Origin: Candidatus Woesearchaeota archaeon
Lineage (GTDB): Archaea > Nanobdellota > Nanobdellia > Woesearchaeales > JAGLGH01
Assembly (NCBI GenBank): GCA_030670545.1
Contig: DAOVBM010000002.1
Location: 4,258-68,257 of the forward strand
Reading direction: 5' to 3'
Length of the DNA stretch: 64,000 bases
Every line of letters begins with the position of its first letter. The stretch's first letter is position 1. The position numbers and the translations under genes are program-made. Positions 30,201 through 60,521 of this stretch are shown here, piece after piece. The notes under the pieces were generated by a model. That model was not told where the DNA came from and did no database searches. It was given only the letters and a program-made list of their open reading frames with translations.

Positions 30201-30203
30201 AAA

Positions 30204-34072: not shown

Positions 34073-34105
34073 CTATAATGGCCAATAGTCCTGTGCTATC
34101 ATGTT

Positions 34106-39514: not shown

Positions 39515-42478
39515 ATGAAAAAAACAACAACAACAATCATAATAACTTTATTAACAGTTTTAATAACAAGCTCTGTCTCAGCATTAAACATAACGCTTTA
39601 CTACAATGAAACAACTGGGCTGTATGATGAGAGCGGGGATTATACATCATCTGCAGACAATTACGGTGGCTCGCCATTATACGCCTGCGTGATTGAATGG
39701 GAAGAAGATACTCCTTCAGGTACTGATATCACAATGCAGCTGAGGTCTGGCAATGCAGAGCCTTTGTCAGGAGACTTTATAGGGCCTGACGGAACCTCCG
39801 ACACTTATTATCAAACAAGCCCTTCTATCGCAAACTCAACGCATAATTCTAATACCTATATTCAATGGAAATCATTTTTAACTACAACAGATACATCAAT
39901 AACTCCAACATTATACAATGCAACTTATTGGTGTTATTCAACCTGTACTTCAGATTTAAATTGTAATGCAGGCTTATACTGCATCAGTAATGAATGCGTT
40001 CCGAACACTGCTCCTGAGATGGTAGGCATAACAGACAGCCCAGATCCAATCAAAGGCGGGACAAGCATCACAATCACTGCAAATGGAGTCACAGACCTCC
40101 AGGATGATACGCTTTATCTTTACTGTGGAACAACAACTACCCCTGATTCAGGAAATACTATCTGCGCAGGCGGAACAACATCAGATACAGGAGATCCTTA
40201 CAATCTTGACTGTACATTTCCTGTACCAACAGATGACACAACACATACAGTCTATTGCAGGCTTTATGATGGAACTGTCTACAGCGCTGTAAACTCAACA
40301 ACATATACAACAGACAGCACTCCTCCTGCAGCTGTTACAATCACAAGTTTAGATGGTGATATAGCATCACCTTACTGGGATACTTCAGACAATTCACAAA
40401 CAATAATCTACGCAGACAGGCCGGATTCAGGTATGTTATGCAGATGGTCAACAACTGATATACCATATTCCAGTATAAGCAGTTCTAATGATTGTACAAT
40501 GGGAGAGGATAGTACACAATGCAACCTAGGCAGCCTTTCCCAATCAGCCTCTTACACATACCACATATCTTGTTCTGATGCTGTTGGCAATGATCAATCA
40601 ACAGCCCAAAATACAGGTATCACATTCGGAGTTGACTGGACAGAACCCAGCACTTATGTAAGCGGCACAGGAAGCTATTATGTTCCAGGACATGAAGTCA
40701 TATTCCATGAAGAAGATAATATAGGCACACCTGCTACAATCCTTACATGGCATTGTACTTCTGACCTCGGCTGCACTCCTGTAATTGAAATTGACAATCT
40801 TGAGGATGTTACATTCACAGAAAGAGGAACTAATTATTTAAGATGGTACAGTAAAGATGCAGCAGGCAATGACCAGCCAGCACAGGGTGTAACTGTAGAA
40901 ATTAACAGCCTGCCTGTGATAACTGATGATGATATGTTCTCAGGTGTCGAGGGATCAGGTGATTTCACTGGACAAAAAGGCCAGAAAGCGCATTTCTACT
41001 GCAAAGGCACAGATTCAAACGGAGCAGTTGACGGCAATGCAGGATATTCTGCAAAGATATGGTTAAGAGTCTCCGGTTCTGGAACATGGGACAGGGTAAA
41101 TGGCGTTTCAATGACATGGGATTCAGCAAATAACAGATTTTTCTATAATTTAGTTTCACCTATCACTGACAGCTATAATACAAAATGGGATATGATGTGC
41201 GAGATTACTGATGATTTAAATGAAGGGGCAAATCATACAAAGAATAATGTATTTACAGTTGTAAATACCCCTCCAAATGTTGATGAGATATTTGTAGGCT
41301 ATCCAAATGCGCAAAAATTCGATAATCAGCGCTGGAAATGCGCAGTAGTTGATTATGATGACCAGCATTCAGGCAATGCTATGGAAGTAATATTCTCGCT
41401 GGCAGAAAGAGGTTATCTTATTTCGGGTCCCCTGCTTCTTGATAATGTTACAATGACATGGGAAAGCGGGGCTAATTATTATTATGATAGGATTGTGCTG
41501 GAAGATGGAGATACACATTATGATGCACAATGCCTGGCTTACGATGGAGTAGAGTATTCATCAATGCGCACAGAACTTGATGTTCCAGAACATATTGTAA
41601 GCAATGACTGGGACGGCGACGGAGTATCAGATTCAGCAGATAGCCTTGAAGGTACAGGAGCAGACCTTGACACAGCACTGAGTGTTACAATAAAAGTTGA
41701 CGGCATAGTCAACAATAGTCCGAGAGGCTCGCATACAGTTACATTCGAAGATAATGGTGTAGAATTTGTTAGGTTTACAAATGACTTTGATACAAACGAA
41801 CTTTTAACACCATGGATTATAGTTGATAGGATAGCAACAGGCGAAAAAGGAAGTGTGCTTGTTAGTGGACTTGAAGGGATATCAAAGACATTGCGTATTC
41901 CTAAGCTTCTTGGCTCTGGTTTAATATGTCTAAAGAATTCATCAGTAACAAGCATTAGTGAGATAAGCTCTGGGTGTGATGAACCAGACGAGATATTATT
42001 TGCCAACTGCGGTATTGGAGGGGAAACGATTGGAGGAATTACATGTATTGATAAGACCACATATTATGAAGTAAGTGGAGTGACCCATTCTGCAGTAATT
42101 GAATTTGGCAATGCAAGATTAGAGGTATGGTCAGAGGGTACATATTGGCAGCTTGATGATATATTCTTCTATGTCAACTACACAAATTCAAGTTCAGGTG
42201 CAGCAATAACAGGAGCTGATTGCAATATCTGGTTTGATGACACTGGATGGAATGATATGGCCTTTGATGGAACATTGCATAACTATAACCGGACTTTCAA
42301 CAGCGCAGGAGACAGGACATACAATGTAAGCTGTACACATGCAACTTATACAAATCTAACAGTTCAGGACAGCTTTACAATATCTCAAAGCGCTATCCCT
42401 GAGTTTTCAGTATTAACTCTTGGATTAGGGTTGATAGCTGTGTTGATTGGATTGGTAATAATCAGGAAAAGAAGATAG
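39515..42478 (+). CDS. Large PEF-CTERM cell-surface protein
   Basis: Signal peptide, many N-x-S/T sequons. C-terminal module YNRTFNSAGDRTYNVSCTHATYTNLTV...IPEFSVLTLGLGLIAVLIGLVIIRKRR. Confidence 0.75.
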   Translation: MKKTTTTIIITLLTVLITSSVSALNITLYYNETTGLYDESGDYTSSADNYGGSPLYACVIEWEEDTPSGTDITMQLRSGNAEPLSGDFIGPDGTSDTYYQTSPSIANSTHNSNTYIQWKSFLTTTDTSITPTLYNATYWCYSTCTSDLNCNAGLYCISNECVPNTAPEMVGITDSPDPIKGGTSITITANGVTDLQDDTLYLYCGTTTTPDSGNTICAGGTTSDTGDPYNLDCTFPVPTDDTTHTVYCRLYDGTVYSAVNSTTYTTDSTPPAAVTITSLDGDIASPYWDTSDNSQTIIYADRPDSGMLCRWSTTDIPYSSISSSNDCTMGEDSTQCNLGSLSQSASYTYHISCSDAVGNDQSTAQNTGITFGVDWTEPSTYVSGTGSYYVPGHEVIFHEEDNIGTPATILTWHCTSDLGCTPVIEIDNLEDVTFTERGTNYLRWYSKDAAGNDQPAQGVTVEINSLPVITDDDMFSGVEGSGDFTGQKGQKAHFYCKGTDSNGAVDGNAGYSAKIWLRVSGSGTWDRVNGVSMTWDSANNRFFYNLVSPITDSYNTKWDMMCEITDDLNEGANHTKNNVFTVVNTPPNVDEIFVGYPNAQKFDNQRWKCAVVDYDDQHSGNAMEVIFSLAERGYLISGPLLLDNVTMTWESGANYYYDRIVLEDGDTHYDAQCLAYDGVEYSSMRTELDVPEHIVSNDWDGDGVSDSADSLEGTGADLDTALSVTIKVDGIVNNSPRGSHTVTFEDNGVEFVRFTNDFDTNELLTPWIIVDRIATGEKGSVLVSGLEGISKTLRIPKLLGSGLICLKNSSVTSISEISSGCDEPDEILFANCGIGGETIGGITCIDKTTYYEVSGVTHSAVIEFGNARLEVWSEGTYWQLDDIFFYVNYTNSSSGAAITGADCNIWFDDTGWNDMAFDGTLHNYNRTFNSAGDRTYNVSCTHATYTNLTVQDSFTISQSAIPEFSVLTLGLGLIAVLIGLVIIRKRR

Positions 42479-42875: not shown

Positions 42876-42895
42876 AATTTTTTCTTAAACAAATC

Positions 42896-43060
42896 GTATG
42901 TAAACAGTCTGCTATTCAAGGAGCACCAGCATCATCCGGTCAAAACTCATTCTATTTTTACCTCCTGCTCGTCGCGAGGGGTCGCTCCATCCGGGAACGC
43001 AGAGCCTTCTAATAACCCATCCCAAGTTTTGAAGATGCTTGTGCTCTATGACCTCTGACT
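42896..43060 (-). repeat. Family-1 hairpin element, copy F (reverse orientation, variant core)
   Basis: Reverse complement carries GGAGCACAAGCATCTTCAAAACTTGGGATGGGTTATTAGAAGGCTCTGCGTTCCCGGATGG... Confidence 0.65.
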
Positions 43061-43115
43061 TTTTACATACAACAAATCAAAACTATTATAAATAATTCTA
43101 TAAATATATCAATGA

Positions 43116-46054: not shown

Positions 46055-46272
46055 ATTTGGATATAGTTCACTGATTATTTTTATATGTTTGTATGCATTA
46101 AGCAGCCAAGCCCACGTAATTCAAATAATTCCTAATTTTTTCTTTTCATTTGCGTATGCCAATGATGCCGTCGCGAGTACAATGGTACTCGCAGGCAAAG
46201 AACTGATAAGAATTGATTTGAAACGCAGAGAAATATTGAACAATTATTTTCATCATAAAAACTTTAAACAAT

Positions 46273-48096
46273 CTAACACTTGATCTTATGATGCACTATA
46301 AAGCATTCTTTTGAATCTACCACCTTTACTTCTGACTCAATCTCTTTTTTTATCTTTTCGCAACTTGTCTTTGGATTGAGCTTCTTGTCATATCCCACAG
46401 AAAGATATTCTATTTTCTCGAATGATTCATGCTCCCTCAGGTTTATCTTTGCCTTGCTGAGAGGTATCATCCTGCTCTGCGTTATGTCGGTTATTATATC
46501 TCCTTTGATCAAATCAAAAAGCAGCTTGAACTCACAGCCTTTATCTTTGCAGGTCAGCATGCATGCAGGGATAAGATATGTAGTTATGCTCTTTACAGGC
46601 TTTTCTGACATAAGCACAAGGTCTTTTATCGACGTCTTTGGCTTTATCACTGGCAGTATATCTTTTGATGCAAACTTCTTTGTCTCCTTCAGCACATCAA
46701 TAGTCTCTTCCTCTTCTCCAAGGATATCAATCGCTTCTCCACCATGCTTTGATCTCTTGGGCCTTATATTCACAAGAAGGGGCATGTCAACAATCCCTGT
46801 GATCATTGCTGTCCCTATAGGCAGGCTCTTGATATTGCTTTCAGACTCTGAAGATATCCCCTCAACTGATGATATGATTGCCTTAAGGTCATTTGGATTT
46901 GTGACTTTCAGGATTATCTGTGTATTGCACTGCGAGAGCACAGATTTCTCGACTCTTGCAGGCCTCTGCGTAATTATGCACATCCCAAGCCCAAACTTGC
47001 GGCCCTCGCTTGCTATTGTCCTGATGATGCTTGCGGATTTTGCATCCCCAAATCCCCTTTCAGGGCAGAAGTTGTGCGCTTCTTCAATGACTGCAAAAAA
47101 AGGCGGTATCCTGCCCCTTTTCCTTTCTTCAAAAAGGTCTTTCATCAGCTTGTAGACAATTATCTGCTGCATCTCAGGCTCTATCCCTCTCATGTTGATT
47201 ATAGAGCAGTTGCCTGGCTGTATCAGTTCATTATATTGCGTATAATCTGAAGAGAACAGCTCAAGCTTGTCAAGATAGTCTATGACATTGATAAGGTTCC
47301 ACTTTGCATTATTCTCCTCGGTTTCAAGCTCAAGCAGCAGCCCTGTGATTGTCACAGGATTAAGGTTCTTGAGCGCAGAATACAGCACAGCCATCTGGTT
47401 TGATGTCAGCTTGCCAGGCATGAGGTGGATAAGCTCCTGGCTTGTCATCTGATCATTTAGCTTCAGCGGAATTGATTCATTGTTTATGTTTATATCTCCA
47501 TATTCCCTAATCTGTCCTGCATAGCTCTTGGCTGTTATGCCAAACTTTTCCATCCTCTCTATGTCTTTCTTATTGTCATTCTTCTGTTTTAATGCAGAGT
47601 ACTCTCCATGGGGGTCTATTATAAGCAGAGGAACTTTCTTCTCGAGAATCTCTTCTATCAGCACTGAGGCCATGTATGATTTTCCTGCTCCAGTTTTTGC
47701 GATTATTGATACATGCTTTGTGAGAAGCTTTTTCAGGTCAAGCCTTATCATTATGTCCTTAGAGTCAAGTTTTCCTATATAAGCTCCATTCCTGTTTGTT
47801 TCAAGAGCAAGCACACCTTTTATTAGTTTGTCTTCAGCTTTCAGTACTTCTGAACCAGAAGCAAAAGGAATTCTCATCTGCCTTACTTTCTTATCTTTGT
47901 CAACATAGCCTATCACATTGCAGAGAGCTATAGTTTGGTTCTTATCAGAAATAAGCTCTATTATCTGACCAAGCACAAACTCATAATTCTTATGATACAC
48001 CTGCACATAATCAAACTTTCTTGCATCATGGTCTACTGCAAACCTGAAACTGGTTGTTGTAATCCTTCCTGTAATCTTGCCAAAAATCATAGACAT
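46273..48096 (-). CDS. HerA/FtsK-superfamily ATPase (DUF87-type) with extra Cys-containing C-terminal domain
   Basis: N-terminal barrel, Walker A IIAKTGAGKSY, DPHGEY, Walker B LLIIDEAH-like block (FFAVIEEAHNF). No NurA/Mre11/Rad50 neighbours. Confidence 0.65.
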   Translation of the reverse strand: MSMIFGKITGRITTTSFRFAVDHDARKFDYVQVYHKNYEFVLGQIIELISDKNQTIALCNVIGYVDKDKKVRQMRIPFASGSEVLKAEDKLIKGVLALETNRNGAYIGKLDSKDIMIRLDLKKLLTKHVSIIAKTGAGKSYMASVLIEEILEKKVPLLIIDPHGEYSALKQKNDNKKDIERMEKFGITAKSYAGQIREYGDININNESIPLKLNDQMTSQELIHLMPGKLTSNQMAVLYSALKNLNPVTITGLLLELETEENNAKWNLINVIDYLDKLELFSSDYTQYNELIQPGNCSIINMRGIEPEMQQIIVYKLMKDLFEERKRGRIPPFFAVIEEAHNFCPERGFGDAKSASIIRTIASEGRKFGLGMCIITQRPARVEKSVLSQCNTQIILKVTNPNDLKAIISSVEGISSESESNIKSLPIGTAMITGIVDMPLLVNIRPKRSKHGGEAIDILGEEEETIDVLKETKKFASKDILPVIKPKTSIKDLVLMSEKPVKSITTYLIPACMLTCKDKGCEFKLLFDLIKGDIITDITQSRMIPLSKAKINLREHESFEKIEYLSVGYDKKLNPKTSCEKIKKEIESEVKVVDSKECFIVHHKIKC

Positions 48097-48139
48097 AAGA
48101 AAGTGTTGAATGTTTATATAAGTTGCTGTTTATGGTATG

Positions 48140-48235
48140 TAATAATCATATGTAAAAGAGCAGTAGCATCTTCAAAACTTAAGATAGGTTATTCGAGGGC
48201 TCTGCGTTCCCGGATGGGACAACCCATGTCATTAA
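48140..48235 (+). repeat. Family-1 hairpin element, truncated copy G (5' half only)
   Basis: Matches the family from GTAATAATCA...GGGACAACCC, then diverges. Confidence 0.55.
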
Positions 48236-48375
48236 GTTAAGGTATTTTATTCAAGATTTTCTTAGGATTCAAATCCATCCTAATCTAATTCTTTGCCTGC
48301 TTCCACCATTGTTCCAGCGACGGCCATTAGCATTCGCAAAGGAAAAGAAAAGAATTAGGAAAGATTTGGAGAGGC

Positions 48376-48528
48376 TACACGAAAAAAAGCAGAAAGTATT
48401 GTCCTTTAGGACGAGGATGGATGCTATTGCATTTTTGCTTTATGCTTTTTTTGTGTCCTAGAAATCCGTCTCGAAAATTCGGCGCAAGCCAAGTCCTTTA
48501 GGGCTTGGTAAGTCGGATTTTAGGATTT
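48376..48528 (+). repeat. Family-3 repeat, copy 1 (direct repeat flanking the 48551-49420 gene)
   Basis: ~80% identical to 49694-49851. Internal hairpins GTCCtttaGGAC and CCAAGTCCtttaGGGCTTGG. Confidence 0.6.
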
Positions 48529-48550
48529 CCATGACATCTTAAAGACTCAT

Positions 48551-49420
48551 CTATTGCTGATTTACATATTCAAAATAGCCGTACTTAAGCTTATTCTGCA
48601 TCTTTTCAAAATCTTTATCAGACATCAGGCCGCCTTCTCCTGAAAATCCTCCCTGATGTTCTTTAAAATCTTTTGCCAGGATTACCATATCACCTGCCAT
48701 TTGTGTCAGGCCTGTTATATACTTAACCTGCCTTGGATCTTTTGCGCCAGGATAGGCAAGAATTTCCTTAAATGTATCCACAATTATTTTATATCTGGAT
48801 AAGTGTGTATTTGCCATGCTGTTTATGATTTTTGTGTCGCTGGGCCCAAATTTCCCGCCTTTACCTGTTAATTTGTATCCTGTTTCTGCAAGAACCTCAA
48901 TCCCTTCTTTGAGATGGCCTGCTGTTTTTGTGAGCTTTAAGAGAGAGTGAATTTGATAATCATCTTTTGCTATTACATCTATCCCTGGATAAGAAGGAAA
49001 ATTCTTTGTTATTTCTTCAACTATACATTTGTACCTTGTTTCGTTAATATTCTCCATATTTTTTATCAAATCGCATAAATTATGGAATTCATTCCCAGTA
49101 ATATCTCTAAATTTCCCTTTTTTTCTATATCCTGTCCCTAATATATTTATTGCCCCTGTTATATAATCCTTCTCAGTGTTGAGATAATCCAGCCATAATT
49201 TGTGTTCTGGTTTGTTTAAAGATACAGATAATTCCAGATTGTCTTCAAGATTTTTTATAATCTTGTTTATTCTGGATTCTTTGTAATTATGTTCCAGCTG
49301 GGTTATTGTGGGTTTAGGCTGCCTCTCCATCAATATGTTATTTCCTGCAGCAGAGTCCTCACTATATAGAAGAATGGTTCCAACTACGCAAATCATTGCG
49401 ATTCCTTGTTTTATTTTCAT
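48551..49420 (-). CDS. Secreted hypothetical protein (signal peptide) bracketed by family-3 direct repeats
   Basis: N-terminal hydrophobic segment. No recognisable domain. Confidence 0.45.
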   Translation of the reverse strand: MKIKQGIAMICVVGTILLYSEDSAAGNNILMERQPKPTITQLEHNYKESRINKIIKNLEDNLELSVSLNKPEHKLWLDYLNTEKDYITGAINILGTGYRKKGKFRDITGNEFHNLCDLIKNMENINETRYKCIVEEITKNFPSYPGIDVIAKDDYQIHSLLKLTKTAGHLKEGIEVLAETGYKLTGKGGKFGPSDTKIINSMANTHLSRYKIIVDTFKEILAYPGAKDPRQVKYITGLTQMAGDMVILAKDFKEHQGGFSGEGGLMSDKDFEKMQNKLKYGYFEYVNQQ

Positions 49421-49520
49421 TTTTATACTAAAAAGTAGGCATCCTTTATAAACTTTACTATATATTTATCACTATTTAGTGACCACTTGATTGTAACCTG
49501 GTTTTGGGATTTGAGGGATC

Positions 49521-49688
49521 ATGTTATCGAAAATTTCGCAAGAAATTTTATTGGGGTTTAATACCCCCACTTCAGTGCGAAATTTTGGATTCCAAAAATT
49601 TGATAATCTATAATGCAAATCCGTAATACCCCACATTTATGGTGGGGATAGGATTTGTTATCAATAAATTGTCAAATTTTTGTTATTG
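49521..49688 (+). repeat. Family-2 structured repeat, copy 2
   Basis: See copy 1. Confidence 0.65.
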
Positions 49689-49693
49689 TGATT

Positions 49694-49851
49694 ACACGAA
49701 AAAAAGCAGAAAGCCTTGTCCTTTAGTACGAAGATGTATGCTATTGCCTTTTTGCTTTCTTCTTTTTTTGTCCTAGAAATCCTTCTCGAAAATCCAGCGC
49801 AAGCCAGGTTATTTAGGGCCTGGTAAGTAGGATTTTAGGATATATATTACT
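49694..49851 (+). repeat. Family-3 repeat, copy 2
   Basis: See copy 1. Confidence 0.6.
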
Positions 49852-49973
49852 TTGAAAATCATAGTTTATATTTTTTTTGGTTTTTAATTTTCATTTATGG
49901 AAACTTACTTCCATTAATGTAATCTTCTTTCTTAAAATAGAAATATTTAAATACTTTCTATCCTGATGACTGT

Positions 49974-50234
49974 ATGATGAATCCTGTTGGAGAGCTGATA
50001 GACCCTAAGATTGCCAGAGTCATAGCTCTGCTTATAAAGAACAGGAAAGACTATTTCCATCTGCAAAAGATATCACAGGAGGCAGGTGTCCCGATTTCTA
50101 CTACTTTCAGGATAATAAATAAGTTGGTAAATCTTGGCTTTATCGAGAAGACAAATGTCGGTAATTTCAAGATATACAAGATAGCAGGAAACAGGAAAAC
50201 TGCGCAACTTTGCAGGGTATTATCAATCAAATGA
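49974..50234 (+). CDS. Small winged-helix transcriptional regulator
   Basis: HLQKISQEAGVPISTTFRIINKLVNLGFIEK is a HTH plus wing. Its stop overlaps the start of the giant gene in an ATGA arrangement. Confidence 0.5.
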   Translation: MMNPVGELIDPKIARVIALLIKNRKDYFHLQKISQEAGVPISTTFRIINKLVNLGFIEKTNVGNFKIYKIAGNRKTAQLCRVLSIK

Positions 50235-53200
50235 GAATAGGCAAAGAGACAAATGACAATCTTGCTCTCAGGAGAGCAGGAAGAGAAAAGAGAAAGCTGA
50301 TCAAGCTGCTAAGGGGGACTCAGATGAACAAATCTGCTCTTATCAATGCAGTAAAAGGCCTTAATGAACAGTATGAAAAAGGAATGTTCAGCTATGATCT
50401 GTATAAGATAAGGTATGATGCTCTTCTTGGAACAAGGACAGTAAAGCAGTGGTCCAGGCATTATGATTATTATGCAAAATGCTGCATGGATGGCATTGAC
50501 AAGCTGGACACGCAGATTGAGCTATTAAACTCTGAAAGACAAGAGCTTCCTGTCCCTCCTGCTATAGCATACCTTGTGTTTGCAGCATTGATAGGATTAA
50601 TGGGATTTTTCCTCATTAAGCCTGCATTCATAGGGTTTGTGACATTTGAAAAAACAGTTAGCGCAAGTGATGATCTGAATCTCACATTTAACGAGTCTGG
50701 AACTTATATCTGGTCTCTATCAAGAGCAGGACAGCTGAACAGCATAATGGTGTCTGGAAGAGTCACATCCGGCGGCTCTGCAATAGTATCAATAATAAAC
50801 GACAATAAAAGCTATGTTATATTCAATTCCTCTTTGCTTGAATTAGGAGGTTTTGGAGCTATAACCGGCTATGCCACATTCGGAGAATATGCAGCAGAAG
50901 TGGATAATATAGCAGTCACAGAGCCGGTTGTCATTACTGAAGGTGATGTTCCTGGAGATGTAACTCTTGACATCTCAATGCAGTACAAACCAGGAACAGT
51001 ATTTGATCCTGAAGATGATGGCAGGGAATCAACAGGAGGATTTATTGATTTCACAGTTGAGAACACAATAACAGATCAGGATGAGTCATTTCTTTGCGCT
51101 ATCTGGGATATAAACAATATCTACAGGGAATGCTATGGGAGTGGATTGTGCTGTGACTTTGTAGAAGTTGAGAGGTATGATTCAGACTGGAAAAAACCTT
51201 TCCTTGTATTTTATGGGCTTGAAGGAGTAAATCTTGATAATAATATAACTTCCCAGGTGTGGTATGTTGATTACAATCTTTCCCTTGAGAATCCATATTC
51301 ATACATATACTCAAGCGATACACTGCAGCTGCCTGCAATGTTCTATTACAGGGGGTATCTGTTTGAGGATTCATGCATAGACACCTGTCTTATTGCAGGA
51401 TTGGGATTCAACAAGACAAATTATACACTGAACATAACAATAGATAATGCTGAGATTGATATATCGACACTGGATTACATCCTTAGTGTTGAGGAATATG
51501 CTGCGAAAGAGACATTGGTTCAGCATAAGGCAGAGATAAACAAGCCTGTCAGATGGACAAAAACAAAGAAATATGATGTTAAACAAGATAGTATTCCATT
51601 TAATATATCTGAGAATGCAGAAAATATTACGATATATAAAAAGGAGAAACAAGACCTGAAAAAAGTTAAAGAAGAAAACATCAAAATAAAAAAAGAAGAA
51701 GATAAAAAAATAGAGATACTGATTAGTGAAGAAGCAAACGAAATAGAGATTGAATACTATACTCCTGCTCCTGAAACAATTGAGATGGACATATCTCCAT
51801 CCTCCAAAAAAATTATTGTAACATCTGAAGAGCATTATACAGATATCTTTACTTATACATCTCTGCCTTCAGAAGCAAAACCAGAGTTTGTGCATCTCTA
51901 CTGGCTTGTCAATGATACAAGGATAGAAGTACCAGATGTTGTGAAGAATGACACAAATGGTAATGGATTAATAGACTGGATTGAATGGATAACTCCTCAC
52001 CTGAGCAACCAGACTTATGTGATTGAGATAGATATAAACAGATCAAGCCCTACATTCTATGAAAGAAGCCCTGATACATGCGACGCTACAGAGTATGCAC
52101 TTGTTGATGATAATCAATATACAACCTGTAAAAAAGGCCAATATGACTGGTGGAGCGGCTATGATTTTTCAGGCATACCTGATAATGCTAATATTACAGG
52201 GATAAAGATTGAACTTAAAGATGCATATACCAAGAAAGGCAAAGAGTCTTACGCAGGCATTAGGTTATCCTGGGATGACCATTCAAACTGGACTCTTGCT
52301 AAAATCTCATCTGTAATAAATGAAAGCAGCTTGCCTGGAGGCACATATGTTTTCGGCAGCTCCACTGACACCTGGGGCCGTAACTGGACAGCTGATGAGC
52401 TAAAAAACCATTTCTGGGTAGAATGGAATATAACTGGACTTAATCCTGTATCTGCAGACTGGCTGCCTGTATCTGTATATTACACTCTTGAGATAGACCT
52501 GCTCTCCCCAGTTACTGATCTTGGACGCCAATCTTCTGACAATACCTGGATATACTGGAATTGGACAAACCCCTCTGAAGAAAATTTTACAGAGAATATC
52601 ATATATATTGATGGAGTCTGGAAACAGAACACTTCTAATAATTACTATAATGCAACTAATCTTGTCCCTAAGCAAAACTATACAATCACTGTCCATACCA
52701 AAGACATATACAGCTATGTCAATACTAACGATGTGAACAACACTGCTGCTGCTACAAATGCAACACCTCCTATAGTCACAAACATAACAAGAGTCAGCCC
52801 TTCAGCTTTCATTGAAAGCCCTTCAAGGTGCAGTGATAGTTTATACGTTTATAGTGATGATGAACAATATGCATACTGCGACAAAAATGAATATGAATGG
52901 TGGAATGGGTATGATTTTTCAAGCATACCTGGTGGCGCCATTATTACTGGAATACAGGTTGAACTTAAAGATACATATTGCCCCTCAGAGAAAATATCTT
53001 ATGCAAACATAAGCCTGTCGTGGGACAACAGAAGTTCCTGGACAAGCGAAAAAATCTCATTCCAGATAATTGATACAATCCCTCCTGGAAGAACATATAT
53101 TTTCGGTGGTTCAAATGACACCTGGAATCATAATTGGACATTAGATGAAATAAAAAACAATTTTTGGGTTGAATGGGAAACAACTGGAGAAAATGCAGGC

Positions 53201-54805
53201 GGAGTATATATGGACTGGCTGCCGGTAACAATATTTTATACCTATGTCCCTCAACTAGGTTCTGTGGCAAACCTCAATAATCCAGATGCTGGAAAGACAT
53301 GGCTATACTGGAACTGGACAAATCCCCGTCTTGGGGACTTCAGTGAGGCTGTCATCTATCTGGATGGTGTCAATGTGATTAATACCTCTAATAATTATTA
53401 TAATGCGACTAATCTTATGCCCAATACTGCTTACACTATTATTGTGCATACCAAAGATGTCGATGGGAATTTGAATACATGGGATGTAAGCAGATCTGCA
53501 ATTACCAGAAAGATTGTTTATTTAGAAGCAAACGCCAGCAAAATAAGTCCTACCACCTTTGTGCAAAGCCTAAGTAAATGTGATGCATCCAGTTATGTAT
53601 ATATCTATGATGACCTTTATACTTATTGCAATGAGGGTAGATATGACTGGTGGGGGGGATACAATTTTTCAATCATCCCTGATAATGCAATAATCCATGG
53701 CATAGAAGTCTCACTATTTGATACATATACTGTCAAAAATCGCGTATCTTATGCAAACATAAGCCTATCCTGGGATAATATGAGCTCCTGGACCAGCGCA
53801 AAGACCTCCCTCCAGATTAATGAGATTGAATTGCCTGGGGGAGATTACATATTAGGAGGAGAAAATGATACCTGGGGACGCAGCTGGACTGCTGACGAGA
53901 TAAAGAATTATTTTTGGGTTGAGTGGACGACTGTTGGAACAGATGCAGGGAGGGTATATGCCGACTGGCTGCCTGTTACTATATACTATTCTGTACCTAC
54001 ACAGCTGCCTTTAGTTAATGAATTCATTCATCCTGACACCACAAACTTTTCTGCTGCTGCAGATTTAGAAAAGATTGAAAGAATGACATTAGCAGTAGAT
54101 AATACAAAAGTGGCCTGGATAAACGCAGTGAATGCTACTGGTGAAGATTATGATGTTGAGATAAATATGGCTGAAGGGTTTGTATCAGTCAATGTGCATG
54201 CATTGCATCATACAATCAATTCAACTGCAAATGTCACTTTAGAGAATATCAATTGCAGTGAGTTTAGATTATATTATGCAGAAGGATTTTACCCGTCAAG
54301 GTTTGAGCTTGTGTCTGTGGGGAATATCATAGCTGATGAATCAAATCTGGAAGGGAATTGTACAGATGCTTCAATATGCACTGATTTATATTGTTCTGGA
54401 AATACTCTTAACTTCATTGCTCAGCACTTTGATGGGTTTGGTATTGGAGCGATATTGTGGGTAAATGCAACATCTCCTGTTGGATTTGGAGATAATGTTA
54501 CTATAGATACAGAAATCCTTGAAGGCAATTATACAATTGATACTGTTCTGGCTGGCATAAAACCTCCTGGAGCTGATGAAGTGAATTATACAATGCATAA
54601 TATTTCCTCAAGCACATTTGTTCTGGATAATTATACTAATTATCTCCCTGGCACTTATAATTATACTGTGTATGTGAATAATACTGATGGTAATATAACG
54701 ACCGATAGCGGATTCTTTGACATGTGGATTAATATGACTCTCGGAATTATGACTATTAAAGATATATATAGGGTTGATGAGATTGTGAACCTGACAAGTG
54801 TATGA
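50231..54805 (+). CDS. Giant (~1520 aa) membrane-anchored, heavily N-glycosylation-sequon-rich surface protein with 3 tandem ~250-aa repeats (novel domain + FN3-like)
   Basis: N-terminal cytoplasmic ~100 aa, one TM helix (AIAYLVFAALIGLMGFFLIKPAF). Repeat units begin CDATEYALVDD, CSDSLYVYSDD and CDASSYVYIYDD at 52079, 52829 and 53579 (750-bp period). FN3-like WIYWNWTNP...NYYNATNL...YTITVHTKD. C-terminal CTDLYCSGNTLNFIAQHF motif shared with the PEF-CTERM proteins, but no PEF anchor. Confidence 0.7.
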   Translation: MRIGKETNDNLALRRAGREKRKLIKLLRGTQMNKSALINAVKGLNEQYEKGMFSYDLYKIRYDALLGTRTVKQWSRHYDYYAKCCMDGIDKLDTQIELLNSERQELPVPPAIAYLVFAALIGLMGFFLIKPAFIGFVTFEKTVSASDDLNLTFNESGTYIWSLSRAGQLNSIMVSGRVTSGGSAIVSIINDNKSYVIFNSSLLELGGFGAITGYATFGEYAAEVDNIAVTEPVVITEGDVPGDVTLDISMQYKPGTVFDPEDDGRESTGGFIDFTVENTITDQDESFLCAIWDINNIYRECYGSGLCCDFVEVERYDSDWKKPFLVFYGLEGVNLDNNITSQVWYVDYNLSLENPYSYIYSSDTLQLPAMFYYRGYLFEDSCIDTCLIAGLGFNKTNYTLNITIDNAEIDISTLDYILSVEEYAAKETLVQHKAEINKPVRWTKTKKYDVKQDSIPFNISENAENITIYKKEKQDLKKVKEENIKIKKEEDKKIEILISEEANEIEIEYYTPAPETIEMDISPSSKKIIVTSEEHYTDIFTYTSLPSEAKPEFVHLYWLVNDTRIEVPDVVKNDTNGNGLIDWIEWITPHLSNQTYVIEIDINRSSPTFYERSPDTCDATEYALVDDNQYTTCKKGQYDWWSGYDFSGIPDNANITGIKIELKDAYTKKGKESYAGIRLSWDDHSNWTLAKISSVINESSLPGGTYVFGSSTDTWGRNWTADELKNHFWVEWNITGLNPVSADWLPVSVYYTLEIDLLSPVTDLGRQSSDNTWIYWNWTNPSEENFTENIIYIDGVWKQNTSNNYYNATNLVPKQNYTITVHTKDIYSYVNTNDVNNTAAATNATPPIVTNITRVSPSAFIESPSRCSDSLYVYSDDEQYAYCDKNEYEWWNGYDFSSIPGGAIITGIQVELKDTYCPSEKISYANISLSWDNRSSWTSEKISFQIIDTIPPGRTYIFGGSNDTWNHNWTLDEIKNNFWVEWETTGENAGGVYMDWLPVTIFYTYVPQLGSVANLNNPDAGKTWLYWNWTNPRLGDFSEAVIYLDGVNVINTSNNYYNATNLMPNTAYTIIVHTKDVDGNLNTWDVSRSAITRKIVYLEANASKISPTTFVQSLSKCDASSYVYIYDDLYTYCNEGRYDWWGGYNFSIIPDNAIIHGIEVSLFDTYTVKNRVSYANISLSWDNMSSWTSAKTSLQINEIELPGGDYILGGENDTWGRSWTADEIKNYFWVEWTTVGTDAGRVYADWLPVTIYYSVPTQLPLVNEFIHPDTTNFSAAADLEKIERMTLAVDNTKVAWINAVNATGEDYDVEINMAEGFVSVNVHALHHTINSTANVTLENINCSEFRLYYAEGFYPSRFELVSVGNIIADESNLEGNCTDASICTDLYCSGNTLNFIAQHFDGFGIGAILWVNATSPVGFGDNVTIDTEILEGNYTIDTVLAGIKPPGADEVNYTMHNISSSTFVLDNYTNYLPGTYNYTVYVNNTDGNITTDSGFFDMWINMTLGIMTIKDIYRVDEIVNLTSV

Positions 54806-54908: not shown

Positions 54909-55268
54909 TTATTTCTTCCGATAACCAAACTTTTTATTATATCTTTCATGATCAATAATATCCAGAACAAAACATATTATTTCTACTTCATCTCCCTTAA
55001 TAGTATACAGCATTCTCCAATATTGAGAAAGTTCAACTCTCCATAAATTTTGAACATTATACTTTTGAGGTATACATTTTTTAGGGATATTGTCTCCATA
55101 AAATGGATTGGCCTTTACAAATTCAAATTTCTGTTTTATAGAACGCAATAATTGTATCTCTTTTGTGCTTTCCATTCCTTGTTTTCGCTGGTTGCCAACT
55201 ATTTCATTTAATCTCTTGTATTCACTATCTGCTTCATCTAAGAGAATTACTCTTACTGACTGATTCAT
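54909..55268 (-). CDS. RelE/ParE-superfamily toxin-like protein
   Basis: C-terminal NLWRVELSQYWRMLYTIKGDEVEIICFVLDIIDHERY resembles the RelE/ParE core. 4-nt overlap with the upstream small ORF. Confidence 0.45.
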   Translation of the reverse strand: MNQSVRVILLDEADSEYKRLNEIVGNQRKQGMESTKEIQLLRSIKQKFEFVKANPFYGDNIPKKCIPQKYNVQNLWRVELSQYWRMLYTIKGDEVEIICFVLDIIDHERYNKKFGYRKK

Positions 55269-55561
55269 ACTTCTGTTCCCCTTTTGATTAATTCATTTAA
55301 TTCTTTCCTTTCAGTAAAAATCCATAGGACTCCTTTTGTTCCAATCATTATTTTCCCGCTAATCTGCAGATAGTCTAATATTTGTATTAAAGTCTGATGC
55401 ATCACTTTTCGGGGCAATTTTCTTTTTAAATCTGCCAATGTTACTAATTCCCTTGCTTCTTTTAGTGTTTCTTCTACCATTAATACAGTATTCAGATTAG
55501 GAGAATGTTGTAATTTTTGTTTTTCCAATATTTGTGTTGTGTGCGCCATTTTGTATATCAA
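55265..55561 (-). CDS. Putative cognate antitoxin / small DNA-binding protein
   Basis: 98-aa ORF translationally coupled (ATGA overlap) to the RelE/ParE-like gene. Confidence 0.35.
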   Translation of the reverse strand: MIYKMAHTTQILEKQKLQHSPNLNTVLMVEETLKEARELVTLADLKRKLPRKVMHQTLIQILDYLQISGKIMIGTKGVLWIFTERKELNELIKRGTEV

Positions 55562-55694
55562 TTAGATATAAGTATATATCTAAAGAATATATATTTATAT
55601 ATAAAGGTTTCGGTTTAGGGTCTTATGGTTTATTCAATTTGCCTGCATATTTATACACTCAAATTAAGAAAAAACCAATAAACTTATATACTTC

Positions 55695-55796
55695 TTGTCA
55701 TACAAATTAAGATTAATTAATCCCTCATACACTCATATATTAAAAACAAATTAGGTCAAGCAGATTATTTTATTTTTTACTTTGTCATACAAATTA
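55695..55796 (+). promoter_or_regulatory. Two 15-bp direct repeats TTGTCATACAAATTA (55695-55709, 55782-55796) upstream of the dual-HTH gene
   Basis: Exact 15/15 repeat spaced 87 bp apart in an AT-rich promoter region. The second copy ends 9 bp before the ATG. Confidence 0.45.
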
Positions 55797-55804
55797 GGGA
55801 ACAT

Positions 55805-56359
55805 ATGAAAAAAACTGTCAAAAAGGATGCCGAATCTTATAGTTTTGTTAATGATAAGGCTGTCACATCATTTGAGGCAAAAGAGAGCAGTTTTCTGAAT
55901 AAGATAAGGGAGTTTAAGAAAAGGCATAAGATTTCAGTCGAAGAGTTCATGCTTCTTGTCGAACTTCCTTCCATGAGTATTCCTGTTTCTATTTTTGATT
56001 CAGAAATGCCTCCTCTTGAGGCAGTCACTCTTTATCTAAATTCATGTTATAGTGTCAATGATATCTCACAGTTATTGAAAAGAAGCCAGAAAACAATCTG
56101 GACCACACTAAAAAATGCAAAGTCAAGAGGATTTGAGCTGAATATTTCAGGTACTGAAAGAGTTCCTCTACAGATTCTTGCTGACAGGCAATTCAGCATC
56201 CTTGAGAGCACAGCAAAATATCTCAGGGAAGAGAAAGGCCTCAGGCTGATAGACATTGCAAACCTTCTCTCAAAAGACAGGCGCTTAGTCTGGACTGTCT
56301 ATGACAGGGCGAAAAAGAAGATGCAATCAAAAGAAAAGAAACAAGATGCGCAAGAATAA
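55805..56359 (+). CDS. Regulatory protein with two sigma-70 region-4/LuxR-like HTH modules
   Basis: EAVTLYLNSCYSVNDISQLLKRSQKTIWTTLKNAKSRG and QFSILESTAKYLREEKGLRLIDIANLLSKDRRLVWTVYDRAKKK are both helix-turn-helix patterns of the r4 type. Confidence 0.45.
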   Translation: MKKTVKKDAESYSFVNDKAVTSFEAKESSFLNKIREFKKRHKISVEEFMLLVELPSMSIPVSIFDSEMPPLEAVTLYLNSCYSVNDISQLLKRSQKTIWTTLKNAKSRGFELNISGTERVPLQILADRQFSILESTAKYLREEKGLRLIDIANLLSKDRRLVWTVYDRAKKKMQSKEKKQDAQE

Positions 56360-57527
56360 GACATTAAGAGGAATATGGAAATATAACAGGAATTTGATAG
56401 CTTTAGCTGTAATCCTGTTTGCCATGCTGTCATTTGCAGCTGCATCTGTCTCTGCTGTAAATGAAAGCTGGGTCAGGAACTTAGGCCCAACCAATGCATC
56501 AATATTCCTATTGATTAAAGTTGATTACTGGAACAGCACAAGCTTAGTATGGGAGGCTGAGTTTACAGCCCTTGATGACATAACTGGCAGATACACGCAG
56601 GGAAATGACAGCTATATTGCGCTTGACCAGTTCTTCAATGGAAAGTACAATTCATCAGAGAACTTTACGCATGGAGATGGAACTTACAGGATTTATGCTG
56701 CAGTGACTGATCCTGAAAACAATGTGCTGCAGGATGTGGAAGGCAGCAGTATTGAAGCAAGCTATAATTTCACAATCAAGATAACTAATGTTCCACCGCC
56801 AAAAGTCACGCTTATAGCTCCTGCAAATGATTCATTTGGCTATGATAAGAGGTCGACTTTCAACTGGTCTTCTGTCATTGATGATAATGGAGACAATGTT
56901 ACATACAGGCTGTATCTGATCAGGACAGGATGCTATGGATTGTCAGACTGCATCAATCCAGAAGTTGATGTAGACAATATAACTGGAACAAGCTACACTA
57001 TTGAGGAAGATTTGGACCTTGACAGCCCATACAACTGGACTGTAACAGCGCATGACGGAACAGAATATGGTGAAGAATCAGATATCTGGAATTATACAGT
57101 AGCATCTCTTATTGATATCAGTCTTGTTGTCAGTGATATAAGTGTAGCAGGAATGGAACCCGGAGACAATGAAAGTACAGAGGATGATTCTCCTCAGCCA
57201 TTCATAGTGCAAAATAAAGGCAATGTGCATGTCAACCTTACAGTCCATGCATCTGTACAGCTATGGGATCTTGCCCCTCTTGGAACTAAGTACTTCATGT
57301 TCAAAGCAGGAGAATCGACTATAAAACCAGCATCATTCAATATGACTCTTTCCGCATCTGACTGGCTGAACATGACAGGTTTAGCACAGTTTGCTGTGGC
57401 AAATCTCCATTATAATGATACTAAAGATTATGCTGAGATAGAGCTGGCTGTAGAAGTGCCGCATAACGAGCCGCCTGGCGCAAAATCGACAGATATAATA
57501 ATAGAAGCTGTTGGTACAAAAACATAA
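56346..57527 (+). CDS. Signal-anchored surface protein with Ig/FN3-like segments (start at MRKNKTLRG overlapping upstream stop)
   Basis: TM at LIALAVILFAMLSFAAASVSA. Many NxS/T sequons. TLIAPANDSFGYDKRSTFNWSS...VTYRLYL is an FN3-like strand pattern. Confidence 0.5.
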   Translation: MRKNKTLRGIWKYNRNLIALAVILFAMLSFAAASVSAVNESWVRNLGPTNASIFLLIKVDYWNSTSLVWEAEFTALDDITGRYTQGNDSYIALDQFFNGKYNSSENFTHGDGTYRIYAAVTDPENNVLQDVEGSSIEASYNFTIKITNVPPPKVTLIAPANDSFGYDKRSTFNWSSVIDDNGDNVTYRLYLIRTGCYGLSDCINPEVDVDNITGTSYTIEEDLDLDSPYNWTVTAHDGTEYGEESDIWNYTVASLIDISLVVSDISVAGMEPGDNESTEDDSPQPFIVQNKGNVHVNLTVHASVQLWDLAPLGTKYFMFKAGESTIKPASFNMTLSASDWLNMTGLAQFAVANLHYNDTKDYAEIELAVEVPHNEPPGAKSTDIIIEAVGTKT

Positions 57528-57541
57528 ATATGTAGATAAAA

Positions 57542-59155
57542 ATGGTATCCCTAATTAAAACCGGAGTTGGAATCTTGGTCATAGCAGCTGCGTTATTGTT
57601 GATAACTATTGAGCCCGTCTCAGCATTTGGAATATCCCCTGCTGGATATAATGAGTTTTTTAAGTCTGATACTGCTTATATATATTCTTTCTGGATTGTG
57701 AATTCAGATAAGCAAAATTTTACTGTTAGTATTTCTGCAGATGGGGAATTAAGCAAGTATATCACATTGCTGAATCATTCAATATCCTTAACTGATGCTG
57801 ATGATTTCAAGAAAGCGTTTTTTAAGATTAGCTATCCTGAGTCATTAGGCGAGCCTGGACAGCACAGCGCATATCTAATCTTCACGCAAGATGATAAAAC
57901 CCCTGAAGCAGAAAGGGATTCAAGACAGGATAATGTCAGAGTTATTCCTGTTGTAAAAGCAATGTTCAACGCTTTTGTGCCTTATCCTGGCCTGTACCTT
58001 GATTCCAATATGAGCATAGAATCATTAAATCCTAGGCAGCCAGTCTCTTTAATATTCCCTTTGTCAAACAGGGGTTTGATTGATATTGATTCCATATATG
58101 CAGATATAAGAGTATATGATAATGGCGGTGCGCAAATTATTGATGCGAGGACTGATGAGATTTCTCTGCAATCAAAGAAACAGGTTGACTTACGAAAAAA
58201 ATTTGGTGATGAACTTAAGCATGGTTCATACAAGTGCAGCGCAATCCTGTATTATGATGGAAATTCTGTAAATTTCAACAGGGATTTTGATTATGGCTCA
58301 TGGATGGTAAGTATACAGGATATCAGGGTTGATGATTTTAAGATTGGTGGGTTTGCAGATTTCAATATAACACTTTCCAATAACTGGAATCAGGATGCAG
58401 TGGGCACTGTTGCAGATATGATTATTACAAGCAAGACAGGATATCATTATGAGAGCGTTACAAGCGTTGAGACTATTCCTGCGCATGGTTCTGCGCAGTT
58501 TAGCGCTTATTGGGACACATCTGATGCAATAGCAGAAGATTATTTTATTACACTAAGGATATATTATGGCCAAAATGTACAGCAATATTCAGAAACATTT
58601 ACTGTAGAGGAAAACCGGATAATCACAAGATATTATACTCCTCCAGAGAAAGTATATGAAACGTGGTATAAGAAACATAAGGAGGATATCAGCTACTGGG
58701 CATTCCCTGCAATACTGCTTATCCTTGCAATGCTTGTATTCTTTATATTAATACAGTTCCTGCCGCTGTTAGATGCTATTATAGCAAGGATGAAAAAGAT
58801 AATATTAATTCCTGTAAGATGTGTGTCCAGAGTTATTTCTTATATTGCAGGATTGTCTTTCTTTGACAACTATAAGAGGAAGAGAAGGATAAGGGAATTG
58901 CAAAAAAGAAAAAATCTGTGCATAAAGTCAATAAGGTCAATAAAAGACGATCTGGTTATTATGAAAAAAGCAGTAGAAGGCCTTTATCATGAACTTGAGA
59001 AAGGCATAATCAACAAAAGCGAGTTCAATAACAGGCTAAACACAATACTTGAAGGAAAAACATTAGAATACTTGGAAGATTATTATGTATCGGTTATTGT
59101 TCAGTTAGAAGAAAAGATAAAGCAGATTAATAAGAAAATATGGGAAGAGGGGTAA
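57542..59155 (+). CDS. Membrane protein: signal peptide, beta-rich ectodomain with VPYPG motif, C-terminal TM and coiled-coil cytoplasmic tail
   Basis: Paralogous to the partial ORF at 62997 (AFVPYPGLYL vs IFVPYPGKYL; ILYYDGNSVNF vs ILINYDGIDLEV). TM YWAFPAILLILAMLVFFILI. Confidence 0.5.
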   Translation: MVSLIKTGVGILVIAAALLLITIEPVSAFGISPAGYNEFFKSDTAYIYSFWIVNSDKQNFTVSISADGELSKYITLLNHSISLTDADDFKKAFFKISYPESLGEPGQHSAYLIFTQDDKTPEAERDSRQDNVRVIPVVKAMFNAFVPYPGLYLDSNMSIESLNPRQPVSLIFPLSNRGLIDIDSIYADIRVYDNGGAQIIDARTDEISLQSKKQVDLRKKFGDELKHGSYKCSAILYYDGNSVNFNRDFDYGSWMVSIQDIRVDDFKIGGFADFNITLSNNWNQDAVGTVADMIITSKTGYHYESVTSVETIPAHGSAQFSAYWDTSDAIAEDYFITLRIYYGQNVQQYSETFTVEENRIITRYYTPPEKVYETWYKKHKEDISYWAFPAILLILAMLVFFILIQFLPLLDAIIARMKKIILIPVRCVSRVISYIAGLSFFDNYKRKRRIRELQKRKNLCIKSIRSIKDDLVIMKKAVEGLYHELEKGIINKSEFNNRLNTILEGKTLEYLEDYYVSVIVQLEEKIKQINKKIWEEG

Positions 59156-59219
59156 TTAGCATGATTTATCCGTAAATCTAGGAATTATCGTGCCAAATAG
59201 AAAGTTTTATTAAGTAATA

Positions 59220-60479
59220 GTGTTTAGGATGGTTATAATGGTGACTAAATATGATGTATTCATGGAATTGTACGAAAAAGGAGGTCCACGAAAGATTGTG
59301 GATATTGTGCAGGGACTTAAGCAAAAGAAGTCAGAATATGATAAGATCAGGAAGATTTTGGAGACTCTTGTAGGAATTAAATTAATTGTCAAGAATGAGT
59401 ATGGCTATGAAAGGAGCATGAACCAGAAGAATCAGCATTTATTTGAGATGCTAAAGTACTGTATAAAAAATGATGTGAATTACAATGAATTGTTTGATGA
59501 GACCGTTGCCAAATATCTAAGCAAAGCATTCCTGAAAAAATCTTTTGGAGTTAAAGATATTGGGCTTCATGCAAGAACATTCTCAAAAATATCATCTGTT
59601 CTGGAAAATAATGGATTTCTGGTTGTGCTTTCAAGAAAACCATTCAAGGCTATTGTTCCCTATAATTCTTTTTTAGGTGATATTATTGTTTATTTTGGCC
59701 ATAGGCCAATGGTTTCCAGACTAAAAACAGATGAATATTTTGATGATATTAAGAAAGAGCTTGCAAAATTCAAAAGGCTAATAGAAGACAATAATAGAAA
59801 GTATCAGGAGATTCTTGAGACATTCCAGATAAAGTTTATTCATCATAGTCTGAGTATTGAAGGCAATCCAATTACTCTCAGGCAGACAATCAAGCTGCTT
59901 AAGGATAAAATTGTTCCAGAGAACCTGAGTGTTGAGTCTGTTCAGGAAGTCCAGAATTATCAGAAAGCTTTTCTGCAGATGATCCAGAATGTGAGGGACG
60001 AGCTTCCTCTCTCAAAAGACAGCATGTTGAACTATCATTTTATTGCGCTGCAGCACAAACCAGAATGGGCTGGCAAGATTAGAGATGACCATGTTACTAT
60101 ACGCGGGAATGTAGATTACAAAGTTGCTCATTATAAAGATGTAGATTCGCTGTTAGATAAACTTGTCAAGAGATACAATGACTTTCTTAATGTGAAAAAG
60201 CACGCATTAAAAGAACTTCTTGAATTTGCTTCATATATTCATAATGAGTTTCAGCACATTCATCCTTTCTTTGACGGGAACAGCAGGACAACCAGGCTTA
60301 TTGTCTTCCATTTCCTGCAAATAAATGAAATCCCTATTTTTGATATACCTCTGGGATTGCTTGAAGAATATGTGTTTTCCACAAAAGGAGCAAAGAAGCG
60401 TGACGACCAGAAGTTAGGTCAGATACTTCAGCAAATAATTCTCTATAATCTAAAGACAATTAATGAGAAACTCTCTTGA
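59220..60479 (+). CDS. Fic/DOC family protein (probable AMPylase) with N-terminal wHTH
   Basis: Fic motif HIHPFFDGNSRTTR matches HPFx[DE]GN[GS]R. Confidence 0.8.
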   Translation: MFRMVIMVTKYDVFMELYEKGGPRKIVDIVQGLKQKKSEYDKIRKILETLVGIKLIVKNEYGYERSMNQKNQHLFEMLKYCIKNDVNYNELFDETVAKYLSKAFLKKSFGVKDIGLHARTFSKISSVLENNGFLVVLSRKPFKAIVPYNSFLGDIIVYFGHRPMVSRLKTDEYFDDIKKELAKFKRLIEDNNRKYQEILETFQIKFIHHSLSIEGNPITLRQTIKLLKDKIVPENLSVESVQEVQNYQKAFLQMIQNVRDELPLSKDSMLNYHFIALQHKPEWAGKIRDDHVTIRGNVDYKVAHYKDVDSLLDKLVKRYNDFLNVKKHALKELLEFASYIHNEFQHIHPFFDGNSRTTRLIVFHFLQINEIPIFDIPLGLLEEYVFSTKGAKKRDDQKLGQILQQIILYNLKTINEKLS

Positions 60480-60521
60480 TTATATTCTCCTTGAGTCATA
60501 CCAAAAGTGGCTTTTGATACA

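Follow-up and report, generated by a model that had tools for sequence, protein, structure and literature searches.

Two copies of a structured repeat at the HerA locus

The DNA analyzed here (the window) is a stretch of 64,000 nucleotides (nt) from contig DAOVBM010000002.1 of an archaeal assembly (GCA_030670545.1). Next to its HerA gene lie two same-strand copies of a repeat, F3, one of them intact (F3a) and the other decaying (F3b). Between them are a minus-strand gene for a protein of 289 amino acids (aa) and one copy of a second repeat, F2 (Table 1). The window is part of the chromosome of a DPANN archaeon of the Nanoarchaeota/Woesearchaeota type, as judged from its housekeeping genes and its HerA. 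The genes include an archaeal ribosomal-protein operon (L3 through L15, then SecY), as well as HisRS, SMC, RNase HII, HerA, and an Obg/DRG-type GTPase; the HerA is 75% identical at the aa level to that of two 'Nanoarchaeota archaeon' metagenome-assembled genomes (MAGs) and 48% identical to that of one Woesearchaeota MAG. The G+C content of the window is 37.7%.

The original prediction had described two direct repeats of about 155 bp, about 80% identical and containing hairpins, around a secreted-protein gene, and had read the arrangement as a small composite mobile cassette or a duplicated insertion site. The two same-strand repeats are real and far beyond chance, and the predicted ends lie within a few bases of ours. 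The length also held, whereas the measured identity is higher (86%). A repeat search of the window paired 48376-48454 with 49693-49771 (90%) and 48448-48535 with 49763-49850 (85%), and in an nhmmer search of the window with one copy, the sole match was the other (E=1e-31). The boundaries listed in Table 1 were refined using a gene-interrupting copy from another genome, described below.

F3a folds into two domains. The long stem on the left (approximately 48377-48456) includes a small hairpin, GTCCTTTAGGAC, at 48401-48412, while the right domain (approximately 48457-48524) includes a hairpin at 48488-48509, within which the similar sequence GTCCTTTAGGGC was located at 48493-48504; hairpins in the repeats had been predicted. 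The RNA fold of F3a reaches -58.1 kcal/mol on the plus strand (z=-6.1) and -42.5 kcal/mol on the minus strand. F3b, an older, decaying copy, folds weakly (-40.5 kcal/mol, z=-2.5); seven of its cells are unpaired, 2 nt are deleted, and its left small hairpin is broken. The pairing was counted over three full-length copies of differing sequence: F3a, F3b, and that of the other genome. Together they give 154 pair cells. Standard pairs occupy 95.5% of these cells and five pairs carry compensatory double changes; in the control, with the 3' partners shifted by 1-3 columns, 39-54% were paired, with 0-1 compensatory pairs. All of the one-sided changes that preserve pairing are G·U on the plus strand and none is A·C, so one strand is selected. 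The plus strand also has a T7 run in the middle of the element.

Comparison with Rfam 15, a check proposed for families 2 and 3, gave no match at the gathering score in the whole window, and a permissive search of 48050-49950 returned only chance-level hits (E>=0.6). F2 and F3, as well as a third repeat of the window, F1, are thus unmatched in Rfam.

Table 1. Window coordinates of the repeats, motifs, and genes of the locus.
Feature	Position	Strand	Remarks
F3a	48379-48535	+	Intact; 157 nt; covariance model 194 bits; ends in TGAC
F3b	49696-49850	+	Decaying; 155 nt; covariance model 169 bits; ends in TTAC
TAC left of F3a	48376-48378	+	Full flank CTAC; proposed target motif
TAC left of F3b	49693-49695	+	Full flank TTAC; from left-flank comparison
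289-aa gene	48551-49420	-	From the list of open reading frames; N-terminal hydrophobic helix
TATA-like box TTTATAAAGG	49443-49452	-	About 25-32 nt upstream of the ATG, in the unique spacer 49421-49518
HerA gene	46273-48096	-
F2a	33004-33172		Flanked by the convergent gene for AdoHcy hydrolase and by a gene for 221 aa; strand not assigned
F2b	49519-49686		Two hairpins, weak terminal inverted repeat; strand not assigned
F1	26220-26530
F1	28409-28590
F1	30027-30208
F1	31233-31636
F1	33897-34078
F1	42893-43074	-
F1, decayed	48135-48226	+	5' half only (F1 positions 4-96); nhmmer E=1e-12 to 2e-13

F3 splits a recombinase gene in another genome

A 21-mer from the 5' end of F3 matched three contigs of metagenome 3300014656, in which the neighboring genes are unrelated: a type IV ATPase (L007), a beta-helix protein (L008), and a tyrosine recombinase (L009). 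Each of these copies lies at a contig end. Among themselves they are 98-100% identical, and their identity to the window copies is 79-86%. In L009, the open reading frame (ORF) of the recombinase reads directly into F3 and stops at position 149 of the 172 positions of the Pfam Phage_integrase model.

We found the same recombinase on a longer NCBI contig from another Nanoarchaeota genome (L011; JAHIVG010000010.1 of GCA_018816705.1), where the covariance model places F3 at 1510-1672 (176 bits) and the insertion itself occupies 1513-1672. The junctions read ...GGC ACA GAC ATC CGC TAC / ACGAAAAAAAGC...TTTCTATGAC / ATA CAG AAG CTC CTG GGC CAT.... The upstream ORF piece ends in GTDIRY, the downstream piece is IQKLLGHSRLETTSIYTHV...SPLD, and both align, with neither gap nor overlap, with ten intact homologues of 271-277 aa at GTDIRY/IQKLLGH. 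This colinearity identifies F3 as a precise 160-nt insertion, in sense orientation, in a XerA-like gene. The split gene is direct evidence that F3 is inserted DNA, and xerA is one clean case of a gene that F3 has split. The gene spans 802-1772 of the contig and is cut ahead of the segment that carries the LGH...Y catalytic residues; its truncated 248-aa product is annotated in the database as 'site-specific integrase'.

Two candidates were discarded in this comparison. A weak tblastn likeness between the C-terminus of the recombinase and the flanks of other F3 copies was due to a tail encoded by F3 itself. A split integrase of the SSV type, with an att site, was rejected, F3 breaking the integrase frame and the C-terminal piece following directly after F3.

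The genome that holds the split gene has a G+C content of about 50%, against 38% in the window, and the F3 family is therefore common to clearly different DPANN organisms. Further copies were traced through assembly breaks. Logan contigs of SRR26080965, which belong to the window's own organism, end at 48509, within F3a and 26 nt short of its 3' end, and at 49697, at the 5' end of F3b. No 31-mer is common to F3a and F3b at either position, which points to further, closer F3 copies in that sample. The other Logan contig ends lie at 49551 (inside F2b), 43017 (inside F1), and 48255. Exact-pattern scans of IMG/VR for F1, F2, and F3 gave no match, nor did blastn of F3 against plasmid and phage collections. 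A six-frame translation of F3 plus F2, used as a protein query for ORFs across other copies and for a TnpB C-terminus, found nothing at E<=0.1.

That the repeats are mobile, as had been suggested, is borne out by the interrupted recombinase gene and by the additional copies in unrelated contexts. The prediction had held non-coding RNA genes to be more likely if the repeats were found only at this locus; F3 occurs elsewhere, which favors mobility. We consider it very likely that F3, with its 155-160 nt, is a mobile element without a gene of its own, now spreading in DPANN archaea, and that the two window copies are independent insertions. F3 is a new family of an already known kind of element.

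The gene between the F3 copies is resident

The minus-strand gene without a known domain was also correctly called. Its 289-aa product has an N-terminal hydrophobic helix, no Pfam domain, and no sequence match in the PDB. The AlphaFold model (AF2; predicted local distance difference test, pLDDT, 82) is all-helical after this helix and contains two repeats of about 90 aa, with no PDB fold match at E<=0.001. As far as this evidence goes, the product is predicted to be a secreted or membrane-anchored helical repeat protein. A word-index search with the protein returned only itself. By exhaustive HMMER search, we identified a full-length homologue (P0002, 44% identity), as well as larger proteins with four to six copies of the ~90-aa repeat.

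The repeats flank the transcription unit closely: 15 nt separate the stop codon from F3a, and 98 nt separate the ATG from F2b upstream of it. The TATA-like box in the unique spacer upstream of the ATG would be the promoter of the gene. The contig of the homologue (L010) has a 107-nt upstream spacer with the same box and contains neither F3 nor F2, which makes the gene independent of the repeats. The next gene upstream on L010 is 84% identical to a 288-aa gene that directly precedes HerA in a relative (L003), so the gene family belongs to a variable neighborhood upstream of HerA in this lineage. The 289-aa gene is a resident of the locus and not cargo.

The proposed comparison with related genomes, which we made through HerA in GTDB, gave a partial answer: the relatives (75% aa identity) carry other genes at this place and none of the repeats, and they provide no empty site at the nucleotide level. 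On L010, the homologue is followed downstream by a strong hairpin of another sequence, AAAAACCCAAT...CGCCGCAAGCGGCG...ATTGGGTTTTT, at 1620-1684, where the contig ends. This hairpin may likewise be a lineage-specific repeat, at the equivalent position.

Insertion site and possible mode of transposition

The left flanks of F3 at five independent sites are CTAC, TTAC, CTAC, TTAC, and TTAC, that is, YTAC in 5/5. In the split recombinase gene, this TAC is the Tyr codon of the host motif DIRY, at which the homologues have Tyr or Phe. The right end is TGAC in F3a and in the recombinase copy and TTAC in F3b. Terminal inverted repeats (TIRs) are absent: the first 25 nt match the reverse complement of the last 25 at 9-11 of 25 positions, as do shuffled sequences. 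There is no clear target duplication, and the interrupted coding sequence is colinear, without loss or gain of a residue. Each window copy is a whole element rather than a duplicated target, and a duplicated insertion site is not supported. Finally, a small hairpin, G(T/C)CC-TT(T/C)A-GG(G/A)(C/T), is present in both halves of every F3 copy, with compensatory changes in both stems.

Elements of the insertion sequence (IS) group IS200/IS605 are defined by the lack of inverted repeats and of target duplication, by insertion 3' of a tetra- or pentanucleotide, and by hairpins at both ends of the active strand, and palindrome-associated transposable elements (PATEs) are their ends-only derivatives (PMC7290912, PMC10055086). 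F3 and PATEs are both short (100-300 nt for PATEs), gene-less, and devoid of TIRs; PATEs do not duplicate the target, and F3 shows no clear duplication, within the 2-nt ambiguity of its junctions; both are inserted directly 3' of a fixed tetranucleotide, YTAC for F3, and carry two similar hairpins, one close to either end, on one strand; and both are multi-copy and sometimes lie inside genes. The insertion site of IS608, moreover, is 3' of TTAC. F3 differs from PATEs in that no TnpA or TnpB partner was detected in the sequence examined and the guide tetranucleotide was not recognized. In addition, its hairpins sit within much longer stems, its lineage is that of DPANN archaea, and a constant AC at the junctions is not a described feature of PATEs.

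From these likenesses, we infer an enzyme and a single-strand route for F3. A transposase provided in trans would move the element, at excision and at insertion, in the form of single-stranded DNA, with insertion just 3' of YTAC and no duplication of the target. On one strand, this transposase would recognize the similar small hairpins, G(Y)CC-TTYA-GGR(Y), one near the left end and one near the right. At the locus described here, F3a would have entered the spacer 15 nt past the stop of the 289-aa gene and F3b would have entered beyond the promoter of the gene and F2b, with F2, a second and unrelated dispersed repeat, having landed beside F3b. The IS200/IS605-type, PATE-like mechanism is a tentative assignment, drawn by analogy, to which we give slightly less than an even chance. 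The overall explanation, in which a mobile, gene-less, PATE-like F3 was inserted separately on either side of a resident gene, is probable. The YTAC motif and the F3 model provide a concrete handle for seeking a transposase or an RNA-guided nuclease partner.

Several points weigh against this explanation. The sample of insertion sites is small (n=5). The closest intact recombinase is 63% identical to the interrupted host gene, so that the comparison is not one of filled and empty alleles at the nucleotide level. An AC dinucleotide is constant at both junctions of every complete copy; this makes the boundary ambiguous by 2 nt, and a 2-bp target duplication or a recombinase core would also fit. 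By inspection, the tetranucleotides that precede the small hairpins (left, CCTT/TATT; right, CCAA/CCAG/CCCA) have no obvious complementarity to YTAC or TKAC. No Y1 transposase, TnpB, or other transposase was found in the window, beside the other copies, or on the contig of the split gene, which together cover a small fraction of the genomes. Finally, the two strands of F3 are nearly equal by DNA energies (-36.5 vs -33.9 kcal/mol). The asymmetry is strong by RNA energies (-65 vs -47 kcal/mol) and thus lies mainly in the wobble pairs, which hints at a role for an F3 RNA.

Alternative explanations

The constant AC is one feature in favor of movement by another site-specific system, such as a recombinase of the IS110/IS1111 type or a rolling-circle (IS91-type) enzyme. 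IS110/IS1111 elements lack inverted repeats, have a conserved 2-nt core at both junctions, and rely on a structured RNA. The strand-specific, RNA-favored two-domain fold of about 155 nt would suit them, and MITEs (miniature inverted-repeat transposable elements) derived from IS110 have been reported (PMC11602168). The similar hairpins in direct orientation near both ends and the YTAC motif are, however, more typical of IS200/IS605, and no such recombinase was seen on the contigs examined. We regard this alternative as unlikely.

An active role of the plus-strand transcript of F3 is slightly less likely again. It might serve as an orphan omega-RNA-like guide scaffold for a nuclease of the TnpB/IscB type; the nuclease would then be encoded elsewhere and the guide would come from the flank just after ...TGAC. 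Alternatively, F3 might be a tiny intron-like element whose self-removal from mRNAs would account for the tolerance of a sense-strand copy in the catalytic motif of xerA in a genome-reduced DPANN archaeon.

The original prediction had also offered non-mobile, paralogous small RNA genes with a cellular function. The strong strand-specific fold, the compensatory changes, and the restriction of G·U pairs to the plus strand are compatible with this reading at the RNA level. It is nevertheless not needed, and it leaves unaccounted for the copy that disrupts a conserved recombinase ORF. Near-identical copies occur at unrelated loci, where they break assemblies, and F3b is decaying. The five upstream flanks have no promoter-like sequence in common, one of them being coding sequence. 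The T7 run in the middle of the plus strand and the lack of an Rfam match also count against RNA genes, and we consider them improbable.

A composite transposon or cassette would comprise F3a, the gene, F2b, and F3b and would move as a unit through the two outermost F3 ends, left in F3a and right in F3b. Two same-strand F3 copies do bracket 1.3 kb, and the gene upstream of HerA does vary: the 289-aa gene is absent in L003, where the 288-aa gene abuts HerA, and its homologue is present beside the 84% identical gene in L010. The two F3 copies are, however, only 86% identical, F3b is degenerate with its hairpins broken, and each complete F3 has its own YTAC flank. The homologue on L010 has neither repeat, with 107 nt upstream of it and a different hairpin downstream, and the window gene keeps a unique 98-nt spacer with a TATA-like box. 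A second copy of the unit was not found in the word-index and HMMER protein searches. A cassette is thus very improbable, and the secreted-protein gene can be set aside as a false lead in this respect.

Removal of F3 at the RNA level, either by self-splicing or by the archaeal splicing endonuclease, appears equally implausible. An intron-like element would account for the tolerance of a sense-oriented insertion in the ORF at the most conserved motif of xerA, and the asymmetry of the fold appears by RNA and not by DNA energies. A length of 160 nt is, however, far below the size of group I and group II introns, and there is no Rfam match. By inspection, without a formal scan for the motif, no bulge-helix-bulge with a central helix of 4 bp is formed at the junctions in the recombinase gene; the best pairing there is an imperfect helix of 7 bp (GACAUCC/GGAUUUC), from which the junctions lie 3 and 4-6 nt away. 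Both window copies lie between genes, and the only transcript next to F3a runs antisense to it. IStrons, in which a group I intron is fused to IS605 ends, are like F3 in being mobile, in having IS605-type ends, and in their ability to sit in the sense strand of genes. They differ in that F3 has no recognizable ribozyme and is about 160 nt long, as opposed to more than 1 kb.

Integron-type attC sites, with the locus as a small cluster of attC sites lacking an integron integrase (CALIN), can practically be dismissed: the repeat-gene-repeat layout, the folded, same-strand, structure-conserving repeats (as in the Vibrio cholerae repeats), the adjacency of one copy to a tyrosine recombinase gene, and the report of archaeal integrons and CALINs, including in Nanoarchaeota (PMC9668308), speak for them, but neither an RYYYAAC nor a GTTRRRY core (the R''/R' core triplets) occurs on either strand of F3a, F3b, the recombinase copy, F2a, or F2b. 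F3 has two hairpin domains instead of one imperfect hairpin, and solo copies are dispersed, one of them inside an ORF. At 155-160 nt, it is also longer than usual for an attC site (57-141 nt). The recombinase itself is XerA-like and interrupted by F3, not placed divergently beside an array.

F2, F1, and the accumulation of repeats in spacers

A family-2 copy beside the gene, with a twin near 33 kb, had been predicted and was confirmed: F2a and F2b are 96-98% identical, and nhmmer found no other copies in the window. F2b folds well on both strands (z=-5.9 and z=-7.3). The best terminal inverted-repeat match of F2 is 13/25, a value reached by about 5% of shuffles, and no target-site duplication (TSD) is visible. 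A cis-regulatory role is disfavored because the near-identical copies lie in one convergent and one divergent intergenic region. A module that F2 and F3 seemed to have in common (TCGAAAATT..GCAAG) was not significant (224/2000 shuffles).

F1 is a rod-like hairpin of about 182 nt with 14-nt TIRs (GTAWGTAAWAAGTC), of which seven copies lie between 26 and 48 kb, spaced by 1.2-2.7 kb among housekeeping genes. Its consensus has 53 pairs, 3 of them compensatory, and two copies contain in addition a multi-hairpin insert (130-220 nt) that is homologous between them. The decayed copy sits between the start of the HerA gene and F3a. F1 looks like a classical MITE, apart from its array-like spacing and the variable insert. 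Between the decayed F1 and F3a lies the Logan contig end at 48255, which suggests that a further repeat, present elsewhere in the same genome, begins near this position; the segment 48226-48375 folds no better than shuffles (z=-1.2).

F3 itself resembles classical MITEs in being small, non-coding, multi-copy, mostly intergenic, stably folded, and assembly-breaking. Unlike these elements, which have TIRs and TSDs, it has no TIRs and no clear TSD. The class fits F1, with its 14-nt TIRs, and perhaps F2, better than F3. Having no TIRs, F3 would be missed by MITE finders that rely on them.

In the simplest reading, few spacers of this compact genome tolerate insertions, and F1, F2, and F3 have built up in those few, in agreement with the report of a Woesearchaea genome among the most MITE-dense archaeal genomes (PMC11602168). 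DPANN genomes are tiny, yet the 64-kb window holds at least three structured repeat families. F3 breaks short-read assemblies at each of its copies, and the family may be used to mark assembly gaps and recent DNA mobility in these uncultured archaea.

Other features of the window

The 64-kb window yielded no gene for a transposase, an integrase, or, in an ARAGORN search, a tRNA. A 37-nt inverted repeat, 89% identical, lies on both sides of the HerA gene, at 46129-46164 and 48325-48361.

Several ribosomal proteins of the operon at 4854-17744 carry long Lys/Glu-rich extensions (L4, 335 aa; L22, 268 aa; S3, 264 aa; S5, 292 aa), and these extensions are the source of the A/G-rich low-complexity repeats D1 and D6. 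In two surface-protein genes (1633-2841 and 39515-42478), the encoded signal peptides are nearly identical (75% at the DNA level), and both have a PEF-CTERM-like C-terminal segment for sorting and anchoring (77%). The gene at 50210-54805 encodes a 1531-aa protein with no Pfam domain and three tandem repeats of 250 aa, seen as a 750-nt period from 52105; a small winged-helix regulator gene (49974-50234) precedes and overlaps it. Finally, the right part of the window (54909-61100) contains genes of accessory type, including those for a Fic-domain protein and a Bro-N domain protein, together with a weak ParE-like toxin match beside a small upstream ORF that is possibly its antitoxin. This part may be a variable or mobile region.

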